Below are positions 47,986 to 53,705 of a DNA stretch of 64,000 bases, in pieces. Within the stretch, counting starts at the first letter, position 1; each line of letters begins with the position of its first letter. Origin of the DNA: a virus (Duplodnaviria > Caudoviricetes). The notes below the pieces were generated by a model. It was not told the DNA's origin, did no database searches, and saw nothing but the letters and a program-made list of their open reading frames with translations. The stretch covers positions 129,746-193,745 of IMG/VR virus record IMGVR_UViG_3300033067_002132; one strand, 5' to 3'. Position numbers and translations under genes: made by a program.

Positions 47986-48486
47986 CTATATTTTTTGAGC
48001 AAGAAAAATTTCTTTTCTTATTTTTCTTAGTTCTTCTATCCAGAATATAGCTTTTTCTCTAGAGAATCCTGCTTTTTTTAATCCGTTTTGAATAGTTACT
48101 AAATGTTGCGTTGTATATTCTTTATTAAAGAATCCACAAAGAACAAGATTAAATTTCGCAGCTTTTTCATTAAAGGCATAATTAGTTATTAATTCACCAT
48201 TCTTTAATGTAGGTATTTTATTTAGAAGATCACTTATAGAAGTAGAAATATAAAGTTTTTCTTTTAGAGAAATGTCGGTATTTTTTACATTTTTAATAAT
48301 TAATAAAATAGGATATAATTCATTGGAAAATCGTAAAATTTCTTTAATAGTAAATTTATCTATAATATTATGAATTAAATTATAAAAATCTTCATTTTCT
48401 TCACAAAGACTTTTTAATTTATTAATATCTAAAGATAATTTTTCAGATAATAATTGATAATCTTTATCTGTTATCAGATTGTTCAT
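47986..48486 (-). CDS. Hypothetical protein
   Basis: Intact ORF; start likely ATG 48486. Confidence 0.55.
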   Translation of the reverse strand: MNNLITDKDYQLLSEKLSLDINKLKSLCEENEDFYNLIHNIIDKFTIKEILRFSNELYPILLIIKNVKNTDISLKEKLYISTSISDLLNKIPTLKNGELITNYAFNEKAAKFNLVLCGFFNKEYTTQHLVTIQNGLKKAGFSREKAIFWIEELRKIRKEIFLAQKI

Positions 48487-48820
48487 TGTTAGATGGTACT
48501 TTCTTTGGTAAAGTATTTCCACTTAAATAAGCTTTTATCCAAGAAATATCAGTTCTTAATGTACTTACTTCTGCTATTACTTGCTCTAATTTAGTAATTC
48601 TTAAATCAAAATTTGCATATCTAATATTATTATCTTTTAAATCAGACATATTTGATAAAACAGATTCTATTTGTCTTTCACTACTAGAAATTCTCTTATC
48701 AAGAACATCTATGGTAAATGTCCATTTAGAAGTAAACCATACACCACTAATTAACCAACTTAGCAATATAACTATATGCCAAATATTAATTTTAAAAAAA
48801 TCGTTAATTGTATTTTTCAT
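48464..48820 (-). CDS. Small protein with one transmembrane helix and a coiled coil (holin/spanin-like candidate)
   Basis: IWHIVILLSWLISGVWF then heptad-rich region; GTGTAA motif at 48838-48843. Confidence 0.5.
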   Translation of the reverse strand: MKNTINDFFKINIWHIVILLSWLISGVWFTSKWTFTIDVLDKRISSSERQIESVLSNMSDLKDNNIRYANFDLRITKLEQVIAEVSTLRTDISWIKAYLSGNTLPKKVPSNNEQSDNR

Positions 48821-48913: not shown

Positions 48914-51900
48914 TTAAAATAACTCACATTTACCACCAGCACAAGCGGCGGTTTCTTGTAATTTAGTAGTATCTTCTTCTTCTGTTAATTCTTTATAATT
49001 AACAGGTTTATAATTATTTATAATATTATTCCATTTTTCTTCATCTTCTTTAGTCGTTATTGATTCTAATGGAGCCTGTACATATAGTTTATCACCGGTT
49101 TTTGGTAATAATGAAACGGCGCAAAAATATTCTCTATTTTGATATAAATAATTAATTACTTCATCCCATTCTTCTTCTCCAACGAGAACTGTACAAGAAA
49201 CATTATGTTTAATTCCTTTTTTATTAACATCTGTTGTGCCATTTTCTACCCAATTTTCTTGAGTTAACTTAATTACTTCTAAATGTTGAAGGGCGGATAA
49301 ATGTTCTTTAATAATAGCATTCTCATTAATTTTTAATGGAAAACAAATAATATCATCTGTTTTATTAGCAGACCAAACAGATTCCTCACACATATGAGGA
49401 TTATGTTTTTTAAAGAATTTATAAACAGGATCAATTTTATTACATTGAACACGTCTAAAATAACGCCTTGCGTGATGCGGATGTATTCCTGATGCACTTT
49501 CTAAAACTAAACTTGATGTACCTTCCGGTTTAATACAAGTAATTCTTGCGGCAGGATTAATACTTATTTTGGCTGACCATTCTTTATTTATTTCTATTGC
49601 ATATTTAGCAGCACGTCTTTGATTCGCGGGATTTAATAAAATATCTGGATTATCCATCATTCCTGTAATAGATACTCCTAATAAAGCTTCTTCATCTGTT
49701 AATTCTTTTGATGTATTAGTTAAATAATTTAACTTATCTGTATATGAAGCTTGTAATGTTCCTAAAATAGTCGCGGCTTTTACTGCATCCAAAAATTTTT
49801 CTAATGAAGTAACTTTCGCACCATTAACACTAGTAAGATTACAAAACTGAACACCTGTAAGTCCTTGATTATTAATAGGTTCGAATGAAATCTCAAAACA
49901 TCTACGAGCCGTAATACCATTAGCAATAAGAGTTCTTCTATTATTTTCTTCTAAACAATAAACATCTTCTTTTCCTATATAATTTATAGAAATAACCCGA
50001 CTCTCAAATTTTATATTAGTAATTTTTGTTGCTTCTATTAATATTTTATTTAATTTATTATATTTTTCTGTAGATAGATACAATAATTTTAAACAAACAT
50101 TTCCTTGTTTAATTCCAGGAATTACTAATCTAAAAGATTCTTTAAAATGATATTCTTTTTCTTCTCTATTAGAATCCAAAAACATCCTATTTCCCTCAGG
50201 AAGAAGATTATATACCTTAGAAAAAATTCCAAGTTCTTGAAGTATCAACATAATATCTATTAATACTTGTTTATTTGATTGTGTTATTCTTACACTAACA
50301 GATCTAGAATTTTCATTATAATCTATATGTCCATCGGTAAAGATCATTCCTGAAACAAATCCTGCTTTGAAATTTTTAGATTTATTATGAATAAGTGATA
50401 TATCATCTTTATTTATTATATCAAAACTAGCTAACGCTTGTTTTAATCCTTTACAAATTAAAGAATACTTAATTTTTCTTCCTACTTGTGATTGTAATTT
50501 AAATTTCGGTATTAGTGTTAATGGTTTACTTCCATCGGATTTCAAAATTCCATTAGAATTTGCTATTCTTAATATATTAGAAACATGTGTTTCTATGGTT
50601 TTCATTAATATTTCTGATTCTTCTGAATCTTCATCTATCCAAATTGAAATCGCAGCATTTTTAGAATCTATATATCCATCTCCTAAAACTAATCCAGATA
50701 TAAATCCATTTATAAAATCTTGATTTTTCTCAAACGAAGAATCATCAATAATAGGTGTTCCAATTAAAACTTTATCTGTTCCTACTACAAGATCTTTAAT
50801 TTGAACCATTCCTCTAGTGGTCGCTAGATGATGATCTCCTGTTGCTTTCACATTTCGTCCACAAGATAATAAAACTTCAAAAACTTCTTTGTTATCTCCA
50901 GTTTTTGCTATTTTAGTCGCTATATTTTTAGATGTCCCAAAAGCATTCAAATCTAAATCCCAATATTCATTATTATTTAATAAATGACCTGTGACCCTAT
51001 TATCTTGATGAATATAAATATCTTCTTTACTATTTAATAATTCAGAAAATGTTTTCCATCCAGAAGATGTTAAAATTTTAGTATCTATAGTAAAACAAGG
51101 ATTAAACAAAGCCATTTCATTATCGGCAAAAACGAATCCTGGTTCGCCAAATTGCTTAGTTTTATTAATAATTAATTCAAATTGTTCTTTTGTACATTTA
51201 TTTCTTATTAATAGAACACTATTATTACTTCTAGCTCTTTGTGGTGCGATATGAAACCAGCTAATCTTTTTATCATTAATTACTTGATTATATTCATATT
51301 CAGAAATAGAAACTTCGTATTGCTTTTTATCTACTGTTATTTTTCCACTATATAATTTCGTTTCTTCGTCTAATGAAAATTTATTATGTTTACTTACTAT
51401 AAAGTAAGTTTTTGATTCCATCATATCGATATCATCAAAATTAAAGACAACAGAACAAGCTGATCTACGGATTCCACCTGATAAAACGGCATCTGCAATA
51501 TGCATTAAAATATCATATGCATTAATTGTTTTAATTCTTGTTTGATGTAAATCTTCTATAATATGATCAAGTAATTCTTTAACCTTTTTATGGCAATTTT
51601 TTAATCCTTTATATCCTGGTGCTTTTCCGCCTCCAGTTTTTAATGGGGCACCTTCGGGACGAATTTTACTATAATCAAAGACAATTTTTCTTCCTGTATA
51701 AGCAGTATTTTTAAAATAACAATTTAATAAAGCCTCAATAGAATCTGACCACCCTTCTATAGAATCTTCTACAACATAAGTAACTACAATACCAGTTTTA
51801 TTAGAAGCGTTAACTAAATCAGGAAGTCTATTTAAAAAATAATTAGTTAAACCAAATCCTACACCGCAACCACAAAGTAAAAGATAGAAACTTTCTGCAA

Positions 51901-52213
51901 AAGATCTAATAGAATCAATATGTCTGACGCTACAATTGAAAATTCTTGAATTATGAGCCTCAATTGCTTTACCACCAAATTGCATTGATCTCATTGAAGG
52001 TACTACATTCTTTTGTTTTACCTGATCAAAAGCCCATTTTATTTCACTTAAATCTTCTTTAGATAATTTCTTTTTAAATTTAGATAAATGCATAGACATT
52101 ACACGGTCTATACATTCTTCCCACGTTTCTCGTCTTCCTAAAAATTCATTAAACCTCGCATATTTATTAGTAAATATAAAATTAGATATTTCACTTAAAA
52201 AATTAACATTCAT
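48914..52213 (-). CDS. nrdJ: Class II (B12-type) ribonucleotide reductase containing an intein
   Basis: RRETWEE, PSMRSMQFGG, FNCS, GCGVGF, RRSA, GEPG, NP/CFEI, QFCNL, TCIKPEGT, C-terminal CAGGKC. Confidence 0.88.
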   Translation of the reverse strand: MNVNFLSEISNFIFTNKYARFNEFLGRRETWEECIDRVMSMHLSKFKKKLSKEDLSEIKWAFDQVKQKNVVPSMRSMQFGGKAIEAHNSRIFNCSVRHIDSIRSFAESFYLLLCGCGVGFGLTNYFLNRLPDLVNASNKTGIVVTYVVEDSIEGWSDSIEALLNCYFKNTAYTGRKIVFDYSKIRPEGAPLKTGGGKAPGYKGLKNCHKKVKELLDHIIEDLHQTRIKTINAYDILMHIADAVLSGGIRRSACSVVFNFDDIDMMESKTYFIVSKHNKFSLDEETKLYSGKITVDKKQYEVSISEYEYNQVINDKKISWFHIAPQRARSNNSVLLIRNKCTKEQFELIINKTKQFGEPGFVFADNEMALFNPCFTIDTKILTSSGWKTFSELLNSKEDIYIHQDNRVTGHLLNNNEYWDLDLNAFGTSKNIATKIAKTGDNKEVFEVLLSCGRNVKATGDHHLATTRGMVQIKDLVVGTDKVLIGTPIIDDSSFEKNQDFINGFISGLVLGDGYIDSKNAAISIWIDEDSEESEILMKTIETHVSNILRIANSNGILKSDGSKPLTLIPKFKLQSQVGRKIKYSLICKGLKQALASFDIINKDDISLIHNKSKNFKAGFVSGMIFTDGHIDYNENSRSVSVRITQSNKQVLIDIMLILQELGIFSKVYNLLPEGNRMFLDSNREEKEYHFKESFRLVIPGIKQGNVCLKLLYLSTEKYNKLNKILIEATKITNIKFESRVISINYIGKEDVYCLEENNRRTLIANGITARRCFEISFEPINNQGLTGVQFCNLTSVNGAKVTSLEKFLDAVKAATILGTLQASYTDKLNYLTNTSKELTDEEALLGVSITGMMDNPDILLNPANQRRAAKYAIEINKEWSAKISINPAARITCIKPEGTSSLVLESASGIHPHHARRYFRRVQCNKIDPVYKFFKKHNPHMCEESVWSANKTDDIICFPLKINENAIIKEHLSALQHLEVIKLTQENWVENGTTDVNKKGIKHNVSCTVLVGEEEWDEVINYLYQNREYFCAVSLLPKTGDKLYVQAPLESITTKEDEEKWNNIINNYKPVNYKELTEEEDTTKLQETAACAGGKCELF
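49901..51097 (-). mobile_element. 399-aa intein with LAGLIDADG homing endonuclease at the NPC active site; non-canonical C-terminus ...GITARR/C
   Basis: Block A CFTIDTKILT, block B ATGDH, GLVLGDG and GMIFTDG, block F DVYCL; removal restores LFNPCFEIS. Confidence 0.88.
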
Positions 52214-52625: not shown

Positions 52626-53705
52626 TTATTCTAACGTTTCTAAAATTTTAGTAACTGTATTTTGTACAGTAAAATTTTCTTGTAATTTTAATCCTTCGAC
52701 ATTAATCTTATTTTGTTTGAATCTATTTACCGCCAAATCAATTGCTTTATAAAAATCATCATCAGAAAAAGAAAATATATTTCCTTGATTAAATGGTTGA
52801 CCTTTATGAAAAAACATGCCATCGTAAACTTCTTGTTTACTATTAGGATTAATTAATATACTATTTTTATCGTTTGCCCATTCTTTATAACCCGCACAAT
52901 TTAAAACAATCGCATGTTTTCCTAATGCTACAGAATGAAATTCTGGTAATCCCCAACCTTCTGTACCTAAAGCAAACACAATATCACCAGAATTAAGAAA
53001 ATCATTATACATTTCATTCTTAGGCATTAATCCTAAGAAATCGACATTAAAATATTTAATTCCACCGCAAATATGATGCCAGATTTTTTGATTATCTTCT
53101 GGGCTTATAAAAGGATTATAAATAGCACAATTAAGAAAATATTTAGGATTATTACCATATTTTTTAATCCATAATTTAATTAGTTTTTCATGATTTTTTC
53201 TTTTTTCAAATTTACCGACAACATTAAAAGTAATTCTTCCGTCATTAAAGAAATTTTTATTTTTTACATAGAAATTATACTTATCGAAATAAAGAGGTAC
53301 AACCTTTACATTATCACAACCGCATAGTGAAAAAATATTTTGTGCATATTTATTTGTAACTAATACAGAATTTTGATTTTTAATTATATTAATCTCTTCT
53401 TCTGTAGGAGAATCAAGTTCGTAAAAAGTAAGAAGATTCTGTTTTTTACTAAAAGATTCTAAACCTCCATTTAAATGCCAAAGTTTTAAAATTTGAGTAT
53501 CTCTTTTATGTGTTTTTATGGCTTTATTTATATTTGATTGCAACCAAGAACCAAAATTCTGATCTATATTTTGAGAAGATACGTCAGGATTTCCTATTGT
53601 AAAAATAGAAGGTTGATGATTAATTTCATGTAAGTATCTTAATATACCAAAAGAAACTTGGCCAAAAGAAACACTATTTAAAGGGAGGTTTAGAGCGTAT
53701 TCCAT
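52626..53705 (-). CDS. GT4 glycosyltransferase
   Basis: NSVSFGQV, VGKFEKRK, EGWGLPEF. Confidence 0.8.
   Translation of the reverse strand: MEYALNLPLNSVSFGQVSFGILRYLHEINHQPSIFTIGNPDVSSQNIDQNFGSWLQSNINKAIKTHKRDTQILKLWHLNGGLESFSKKQNLLTFYELDSPTEEEINIIKNQNSVLVTNKYAQNIFSLCGCDNVKVVPLYFDKYNFYVKNKNFFNDGRITFNVVGKFEKRKNHEKLIKLWIKKYGNNPKYFLNCAIYNPFISPEDNQKIWHHICGGIKYFNVDFLGLMPKNEMYNDFLNSGDIVFALGTEGWGLPEFHSVALGKHAIVLNCAGYKEWANDKNSILINPNSKQEVYDGMFFHKGQPFNQGNIFSFSDDDFYKAIDLAVNRFKQNKINVEGLKLQENFTVQNTVTKILETLE

Follow-up and report, generated by a model that had tools for sequence, protein, structure and literature searches.

Terminal arginine in a mobile lineage of ribonucleotide reductase inteins suggests an undescribed last step of protein splicing

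How might an intein finish splicing if it does not end in Asn or anything like it? The described intein classes all do so by cyclising Asn or a close analogue (PMC4031507, 2014; PMC7765530, 2020). The original prediction for the 64,000-nt stretch of phage DNA considered here (the window) placed an intein at the catalytic cysteine of a ribonucleotide reductase (RNR) and noted that it ends in Arg-Arg. It took Asn, or rarely Gln or Asp, to be required for resolving the branched intermediate, in agreement with PMC4031507 except that Glu is also included there, and it left a choice between new chemistry, an intein that is conditional or assisted in trans, and a dead one. The analysis favors a functional intein with a non-canonical last step, the probability that it splices being put at roughly 0.85 on the sequence evidence, and strongly disfavors a degenerate copy.

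The gene is an ORF of 1099 aa on the minus strand (48914–52213) encoding an RTPR-like (monomeric class II, B12-dependent) RNR. Its N-extein (aa 1–372, 51098–52213) ends in ALFNP, the last two residues being the Asn-Pro of the NPC.E finger-loop motif. The intein (aa 373–771, 399 aa, 49901–51097) comprises a Hint splicing domain with a LAGLIDADG homing endonuclease nested inside it, and lies between this NP and the catalytic Cys. The C-extein (aa 772–1099, 48914–49900) begins with that residue, Cys772, which has a double role as +1 splicing nucleophile and RNR thiyl-radical cysteine. The predicted span of 49898–51097 was thus correctly located but one codon too long, as 49898–49900 encodes the +1 Cys. 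Read along the minus strand, with slashes at the splice junctions, the sequence runs ...NEMALFNP/CFTIDTKILT...KATGDHHLAT...LVLGDGY...MIFTDGH...EDVYCLEENNRRTLIANGITARR/CFEISFEP. The DNA at the C-terminal junction (GITARR/CFEI) is GGT ATT ACG GCT CGT AGA / TGT TTT GAG, and the Arg-Arg ending is confirmed. The boundaries are fixed by alleles without the intein (in loci L004, L005, L006, L008, L096, and L097), which read NPCFEIGF at the site; the exteins of intein-less alleles are 66–70% identical to those in the window (67–70% for the loci just named, measured for all except L006). Shifted boundaries, which the DNA would allow since there is Cys-Phe on both sides of the element, were considered and rejected because the intein would then have Phe or Thr as its first residue and Cys or Phe as its last. 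An alternative terminal Asn within the sequence LIANG was also rejected; relatives have Glu, Asp, Gln, or Gly there, and further downstream no Asn is conserved.

Block A of the intein (CFTIDTKILT, 51068–51097) carries Cys1 (C373), present in all 175 inteins compared at this site, and block B (T458-G-D-H461, 50831–50842) carries the TxxH motif, with Thr in 99% and His in 100% of the Arg-ended lineage described below. Between them, E416-Y-W418 (50960–50968) is part of a hairpin insert restricted to that lineage. The two LAGLIDADG motifs (GLVLGDG with D512, 50675–50695; GMIFTDG with D627, 50330–50350) have acidic residues in place and predict a homing endonuclease. All of the elements originally listed as intact (Cys1, TxxH, the +1 Cys, and both endonuclease motifs) are therefore present. 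Block F (DVYCLEENNRRTLIANG, 49916–49966) contains Cys753 (F:4), Glu756, Arg760, and Thr761; alignment with same-site relatives of the HN type puts Arg760 at the block-F His position, as had been suspected. In block G (I-T-A-R770-R771, 49901–49915), Arg occupies both the penultimate (G:6) place of His and the terminal place of Asn. The terminal residue, Arg771, is thus none of the Asn, Gln, Asp, or Glu of canonical class 1 inteins, and both canonical His residues are replaced, by Arg770 and Arg760, although penultimate and block-F His are common rather than obligatory in known inteins.

Profile searches matched the intein to PF14528 (3e-14), PF14890 (9e-11), and the NCBIfam N-terminal model intein_Nterm (TIGR01445); among NCBIfam matches at an E value of 0.1, there was none to a C-terminal splicing model. 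A PDB sequence search returned no intein match. The AlphaFold2 model of the intein (pLDDT 87.5) predicts the Hint and endonuclease folds confidently, and the top PDB folds found with Foldseek are all endonuclease-bearing inteins: the TliVMA intein (7QSU), PI-PfuI (the Pyrococcus furiosus RNR intein, 1DQ3), and PI-SceI (1EF0). These share the two-domain Hint and LAGLIDADG fold (probability 1.0, TM 0.51–0.57), but their sequence identity to the phage intein is just 10–17%. All three are textbook canonical inteins. With its in-frame insertion, intein-less alleles, Cys1, TxxH, Cys+1, and Hint fold, the element has the hallmarks of an intein.

A sequencing artifact had been considered unlikely at the outset, and this holds. 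The codons CGT AGA are at least three bases away from any His-Asn pair, and a read error, frameshift, or recoded codon is excluded because relatives from independent assemblies encode the same terminal Arg as AGA, CGG, or CGA, so that both families of Arg codons are represented. The proposed search for other inteins ending in R/C was positive: 90 of 175 same-site inteins have a terminal Arg, with identities of 25–54%, GC contents of 28–64%, and sources in NCBI, JGI, ENA, and Logan assemblies. A private degenerate copy was likewise rejected, as the window's intein agrees with the lineage consensus at almost all conserved positions. Terminal Arg was found in none of six cultured-phage and metagenomic phage records examined, and the same-site inteins found in cultured phages are all N- or Q-ended. 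Among cellular genomes, the 80 retained loci are nearly all intein-less RTPR genes (from Verrucomicrobiota, Kiritimatiellia, and Gemmatimonadota), plus a few with HN-type inteins, and are uninformative on cellular Arg-ended ones.

In a tree of the inteins built with the last six residues removed, the Arg-ended sequences make up one side (93 leaves, support 99), consisting of 90 with Arg and three exceptions with Asn or Gln. The Arg label requires three changes on this tree, compared to 58 when labels are shuffled; on the opposite side, there are about 20 switches between Asn and Gln. Similarity between inteins does not track that between their exteins, which argues for homing between hosts: the two nearest inteins are 54 and 51% identical to the window's, but their exteins merely 44 and 41%, and the RNR genes between which the element has apparently moved are 41–75% identical. 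Judging from these patterns, the terminal Arg is not a private defect but the mark of a lineage, both old and mobile, to which about 90 related inteins belong.

Several other residues follow the terminal one. The block-F His position is Arg or Lys in all 90 Arg-ended inteins, and Arg in just one of 85 others. Glu756 is present in 90 of 90 (Glu occupies this position in 31% of Asn-, Gln-, or Asp-enders), as is Cys F:4, which is found in 45% elsewhere. The E.W insert occurs in 87 of the 90, with E416 in 87% and W418 in 97%; the column is a gap in 88% of Asn- and Gln-enders. The penultimate position is looser, with R770 in 86% of the lineage and A, K, E, T, Q, V, or S in the remainder. In the three exceptions the terminal and block-F residues have changed jointly (N with H twice, Q with N once), as would be expected if the terminal residue were the chemical actor and the block-F residue its partner. 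Few evolutionary events that are independent of each other underlie this covariation, as the tree has only about three changes.

The RNR itself appears to be under selection as well. It matches NCBIfam TIGR02505 at 2e-58 (198 bits, where the model cut-off is 340 bits) and the Pfam models RNR-II_ins_dom and Ribonuc_red_lgC, and is 34–41% identical to RTPR genes of cultured phages. The 193.7-kb phage genome, rated 100% complete, has no other RNR: the Ribonuc_red_lgC barrel model, which covers class I and II large subunits, has this gene as its sole match there (a weak one, below cut-off), and the NrdD and NrdB models have none. Once the intein is removed, the NPC.E finger loop, the redox Cys pair, and the C-terminal Cys pair are present and conserved, the C-extein contributing E774, C791-N-L, and the C-terminal pair. 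Among 50 intein-bearing relatives, N371, P372, C772, E774, C791, N792, and L793 are invariant, C94 is invariant or nearly so, and C1091 and C1096 are conserved in at least 90%. Of the splicing and endonuclease residues, D512, D627, Cys1, T458, H461, and Cys+1 are invariant or nearly so in these genes.

Set against this background, it is very unlikely that the element does not splice at all. In that case it would be either a selfish homing element, the phage RNR it killed being dispensable, or one that only cleaves, leaving fragments that act as a split enzyme. Such an outcome would fit the lack of a cyclisable terminal residue and of a match to the C-terminal splicing model, and a phage RNR can be dispensable if the host supplies dNTPs. 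It would also remove selection on Cys1, TxxH, the block F and G residues, and the terminal Arg, as a functionless RNR would on the catalytic residues, yet these are invariant or nearly so across 50–90 diverged genes with intact ORFs of more than 1000 aa, and the element has moved between well-separated RNR genes. A 399-aa domain directly in front of the finger-loop thiyl-radical Cys is, moreover, hard to square with an active barrel. The dead intein of the original prediction is thus improbable because the terminal Arg is lineage-wide and covaries with its surroundings, splicing and RNR residues are conserved, the element is mobile, and the phage has no other RNR.

Class 1 inteins without Asn are known from the Chilo iridescent virus RNR and the Pyrococcus abyssi and Methanoculleus marisnigri Pol II (all Gln), and Asp- and Glu-ended ones have also been described (PMC4031507). 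The phage intein resembles them in its Cys1, TxxH, +1 nucleophile, and non-Asn terminus, and in that their penultimate His is often missing, but differs in also having Arg for both the block-F and the penultimate His. A further difference is chemical: Gln, Asp, and Glu have a side-chain carbonyl and go to a cyclic imide or anhydride, whereas Arg has a guanidinium and no carbonyl. Closer in position are RNR inteins at the same site (NP/C.E or NL/C.E) that end in Gly-Asn, Gly-Gln, or His-Asn, in SPbeta bnrdE (AF020713, annotated as a putative intein), Brochothrix phage A9, Vibrio phage VnaP, and Bacteroides phage SJC03. Like the phage intein, to which they are 22–26% identical (E values down to 1e-21), these consist of Hint and LAGLIDADG domains inserted just ahead of the catalytic Cys, and many also have Cys F:4; however, their block-F His position is occupied by H, N, or S, and the E.W insert is missing. 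Class 3 (WCT) inteins such as that of mycobacteriophage Bethlehem DnaB also have an invariant Cys F:4, but with no N-terminal nucleophile, Trp at B:12, Thr at G:5, and a terminal Asn, where the phage intein has Cys1, Leu463, Ala769, and Arg, and so falls outside that class.

Most likely, the Arg-ended inteins splice without cyclisation of Asn, Gln, or Asp. With Cys1, TxxH, and Cys+1 intact, the first two steps are expected from their conservation to proceed as in class 1 inteins, by an N-to-S shift at Cys1 and transfer of the N-extein to Cys+1. It would then be the apparatus of the third step that was exchanged wholesale in an old lineage of mobile, working inteins: terminal Asn for Arg, penultimate His mostly for Arg, and block-F His for Arg, with Glu756 and Cys F:4 fixed and the E.W hairpin newly added. 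One hypothesis, tentative and given somewhat less than even odds, is that the terminal Arg cyclises. The N-epsilon of Arg771 would attack its own carbonyl to form a six-membered delta-lactam and free the amino group of Cys+1, either directly on the amide or after an N-to-S shift had made the Arg-Cys+1 bond a thioester. Arg760 and Arg770 could lower the guanidinium pKa and stabilise the oxyanion, and Glu756 (or Glu416) could accept the proton.

Arg N-epsilon occupies the ring position of Gln N-epsilon-2, which forms the glutarimide in Gln-ended inteins, and carboxyl-activated Arg is familiar in peptide synthesis for its side reaction to the delta-lactam. Like Gln, which needs a six-membered ring, Arg would give the same ring size and nitrogen position. 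Gln-ended relatives occur at the same site, with CAR to CGR a single base change. In the Chilo iridescent virus RNR intein, the native Gln supports splicing better than Asn does (PMC4031507). Against an Arg-lactam, a guanidinium is poorly nucleophilic, its pKa being near 13.8, and we know of no case in which Arg cyclisation cleaves a protein peptide bond.

The invariant cysteines allow a different route, here judged unlikely, in which thiols alone would carry out the reaction. An N-to-S shift at the C-terminal junction, with Cys+1 attacking the carbonyl of Arg771, would produce a thioester that is then passed to Cys F:4 as a thiolactone or hydrolysed. The freed Cys+1 would react with the N-extein thioester in the manner of native chemical ligation, with the three Args serving solely as oxyanion hole and electrostatic catalysts. 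Inteins at this site always have Cys at +1, thioesters are easily hydrolysed, and Cys F:4, enriched as it is in the lineage, already serves as an acyl carrier in class 3 inteins (PMC4031507). The fixed Cys F:4 fits a thiol-based route as well as it fits the Arg-lactam. Such a route leaves unexplained why the terminal Arg is invariable beside a variable penultimate residue and why the terminal and block-F residues switch jointly in the three exceptions, and it requires C-terminal cleavage to precede ligation, an order that leads to dead-end products in the inteins studied. Decidedly improbable is hydrolysis of the Arg-Cys+1 bond of the branched intermediate by water activated by Glu756 or Glu416, with the Arg cluster polarising the carbonyl. 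The whole lineage has Glu756, and its specific insert contains Glu416, but the presence of Glu at position 756 in nearly a third of Asn-, Gln-, and Asp-enders is not lineage-specific, no intein is known to hydrolyse a bond of this type, and the invariance of the terminal Arg is again not accounted for.

Whichever route applies, the Arg-ended inteins probably finish splicing by an undescribed chemistry. A search of the literature on terminal Arg, lactam, or atypical inteins found nothing relevant, though papers beyond its reach may exist. The most far-reaching version, that these RNR inteins form a fourth mechanistic class in which the terminal Arg expels the C-extein as a delta-lactam in a dedicated Arg/Arg/Glu/Cys active site, the first 'arginine lyase' chemistry in a protein, is more doubtful than Arg cyclisation as such. 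A large, conserved, mobile lineage without an Asn-type residue does suggest that an alternative last step of protein splicing is possible. If so, surveys and annotation rules that demand a terminal His-Asn or Asn may miss such inteins, protein engineers might gain a new chemistry for C-terminal cleavage that makes other demands on sequence and pH, and the short list of protein self-processing reactions would grow by one.

The junction, x-Arg/Cys and often Arg-Arg, also looks like a basic protease site, and a phage or host protease cutting after Arg could in principle open the Arg-Cys+1 bond of the branched intermediate. This is highly improbable: a protease common to hosts spanning 28–64% GC is unlikely, known inteins keep this junction buried within the Hint active site, and visual inspection of the RNR neighborhoods, here and in related loci, revealed no conserved helper gene. 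In the window the neighbors encode a glycosyltransferase, the only one with a PHROG match, or are of unknown function; in related loci they include dUTPase, CTP synthase, ThyA, or SbcCD.

The RNR gene of the window is a single ORF of 1099 aa (48914–52213, minus strand). At both ends the ORF matches models of adenosylcobalamin-dependent ribonucleoside-triphosphate reductases (TIGR02505, 2e-58; from Pfam, Ribonuc_red_lgC and RNR-II_ins_dom). The stretch between them gives matches to PF14890 (Intein_splicing), PF14528 (LAGLIDADG_3), and TIGR01445, a model of intein N termini; at E 0.1, the ORF had no match to an intein C-terminal splicing model. The intein (aa 373–771; 49901–51097, minus strand) is bounded by ...ALFNP/CFTIDTKILT... 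at its N junction and ...DVYCLEENNRRTLIANGITARR/CFEISFEP... at its C junction (slashes mark splice points), which bears out the original prediction of an Arg-Arg/Cys ending at the RNR catalytic Cys. The position predicted for the intein also stands, but its extent had included the codon of the +1 Cys, Cys772 (49898–49900, minus strand), which is outside the intein proper. Block B (T458-G-D-H461) and two LAGLIDADG motifs (GLVLGDG and GMIFTDG) are present. An AlphaFold2 run on nine lineage members gave a confident two-domain model (pLDDT 87.5, pTM 0.88), which in the PDB most resembles inteins with an endonuclease (TliVMA, 7qsu; PI-PfuI, 1dq3; PI-SceI, 1ef0).

Intein-less alleles of the site, from viral contigs and from ~200-kb contigs filed as MAGs, read ...NPCFEIGFIPVT... 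(related RNR loci L004, L005, L006, L008, L096, and L097), with exteins 66–70% identical to the window's RNR. Related RTPR genes have canonical inteins at this site, with VHN/C or IHN/C ends (L012, L070, L099, L110), and a same-site intein at L017 has a VSN/C end. On these sequences, the boundaries of the window's intein are not in doubt. Two other placements were rejected: shifted splice boundaries, with which the intein would begin with Phe or Thr, and an end at the Asn of LIANG, a position that is not conserved. The closest intein-less alleles, L096 (RXKB01000001.1, 226 kb; extein identity 70%) and L097 (CAYMQQ010000001.1, 211 kb; 69%), are on single contigs of ~210–230 kb, filed under Dependentiae and Sediminibacterium as MAGs; the size and the RNR of these contigs suggest that phage genomes were binned as bacteria. 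At L016 and L098, where the RTPR motif is NPCCEI, an HN-ended canonical intein is found one residue downstream (NPC/CVS...VHN/CEI), so that the catalytic loop has two or more insertion points side by side.

Searches by word index and by full HMMER found ~200 related inteins at the same NP/C.E site. In the 175 for which both junctions could be placed, the last residue is Arg in 90, Asn in 44, Gln in 39, and Asp in two, so that the further inteins ending in Arg before Cys whose search had been proposed with the original prediction do exist. Rather than in His-Asn or another xN pair, the inteins of the 50 closest genes end in Arg in every case (50/50; 35–54% identical to the window's), and Arg-ended inteins extend to ~25% intein identity, in RNRs with F, V, A, G, H, Y, or S at +2. 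The terminal codon is AGA in the window, L001, L002, L007, L092, and L094, CGG in L003, and CGA in L093 and L095, in genes of 28–64% GC; this variety indicates that the residue is genuinely Arg and is preserved in the protein. By sequence comparison, the terminal Arg is a trait of the lineage.

In a FastTree phylogeny of the 175 inteins, made without extein residues or the two final residues of each intein, all 90 Arg-ended inteins are on one side (93 leaves, local support 99), and the other (82 leaves) has only Asn, Gln, and Asp ends. The window's intein is within an all-Arg clade of 70 leaves (support 100). The Arg label requires three changes on the tree (58 on average when labels are shuffled), and Asn and Gln replace one another ~20 times. 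The three exceptions on the Arg side are the RNR proteins P0134 (Arg-Asn end), P0169 (Lys-Asn), and P0093 (Arg-Gln), and all three have switched the terminal and block-F His positions jointly, to Asn with His twice and to Gln with Asn once.

Cys1, T458, H461, G507/G513, D627, and the +1 Cys do not vary among the 50 closest genes, nor do RNR residues C94, N371, P372, E774, and C791-N792-L793; D512 and the C-terminal Cys pair of the RNR are kept in at least 90%. The viral record (193,745 bp, completeness rated at 100%) has one intein and a single gene matching Ribonuc_red_lgC, weakly, which is the window's RNR; NrdD and NrdB models have no matches in the whole genome. The closest inteins, P0003 (54%) and P0004 (51%), have exteins with 44% and 41% identity to the window's, the closest extein, P0021 (75%), holds an intein of 44% identity, and intein-less alleles fall between these in extein identity. 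Intein similarity is decoupled from extein similarity, the pattern of a homing element moving between genes. An insert that did not splice would, just before the thiyl-radical Cys, be expected to abolish enzyme function, and neither splicing nor RNR residues would then remain conserved; from this conservation the Arg-ended inteins probably do splice, at roughly 85%. That they do not, as in the dead intein offered in the original prediction, is unlikely given the conserved residues and the mobility.

According to reviews from 2014 and 2020, in step 3 of splicing Asn, or else Gln, Asp, or Glu, cyclises with the aid of the block-F and penultimate His (PMC4031507; PMC7765530). In the window's intein, the terminal, penultimate, and block-F His positions are all Arg. 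At the block-F His position, Arg-ended inteins have Arg (88/90) or Lys (2/90); in the others Arg occurs once in 85, the common residues being Asn and His. Also conserved specifically in the lineage are W386, F389, I401, Q403, E416, A464, M469, T761, and R770, and Trp418 is present in 87/90, in an insert where 88% of the others have a gap; the window's copy has the lineage residue at nearly all. Our favoured hypothesis, a tentative one drawn from established chemistry plus inference, is that the terminal Arg closes a delta-lactam. The N-epsilon of Arg771 would attack its own carbonyl, giving a six-membered ring; an N-to-S shift at Arg-Cys+1 could provide the carboxyl activation, a lowered pKa could come from Arg760 and Arg770, and the base could be Glu756 (90/90, vs 31% of others) or Glu416. 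In peptide synthesis, carboxyl-activated Arg is known to close this lactam, and the ring position of the Arg N-epsilon is that of N-epsilon-2 in Gln. Gln-ended inteins are the sister types here, and Gln to Arg takes one base change. Cys at F:4 is present in 90/90 Arg-ended inteins vs 45% of others. The main rival, rather less probable, is a thiol-only route by an N-to-S shift at Cys+1 and this Cys, or by thioester hydrolysis. Hydrolysis by a Glu-activated water seems improbable, and a trans-acting protease, akin to the trans-assisted intein suggested originally beside a conditional one or a new chemistry, very improbable. The last step lends itself to direct testing.

Among described inteins, the nearest are those that end in a residue other than Asn, such as the CIV RNR intein, in which the native Gln gives better splicing than Asn (PMC4031507). 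Same-site inteins of the cultured phages SPbeta (bnrdE), Brochothrix A9, Vibrio VnaP, and Bacteroides SJC03 end in GN, SQ, or SN, and Cys F:4 is all that class 3 inteins have in common with the Arg-ended lineage. No mention of an Arg-ended intein was found in the literature searched, beyond which other papers may exist.

Some related proteins have additional inteins. P0036 (1374 aa, NCBI source) bears one at NP/C, ending Lys-Arg, and another ahead of the redox Cys in the CNL motif, ending Lys-Gln/CNL, again with Cys at F:4. P0027, P0034, P0064, P0131, and P0137 have an extra upstream intein at another RNR site, ending Thr-Gly-Asn/C (e.g., ...GIVTGN/CSVIYLDK), with block F WCLEV. Just downstream of the window's RNR gene are two small minus-strand ORFs overlapping by 59 bases, of 118 aa (48464–48820) and 178 aa (47986–48522, GTG start), neither with a PHROG match. 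Just upstream, with one small ORF between, is a glycosyltransferase gene (52626–53705, minus strand; phrog_2170, 8e-13).
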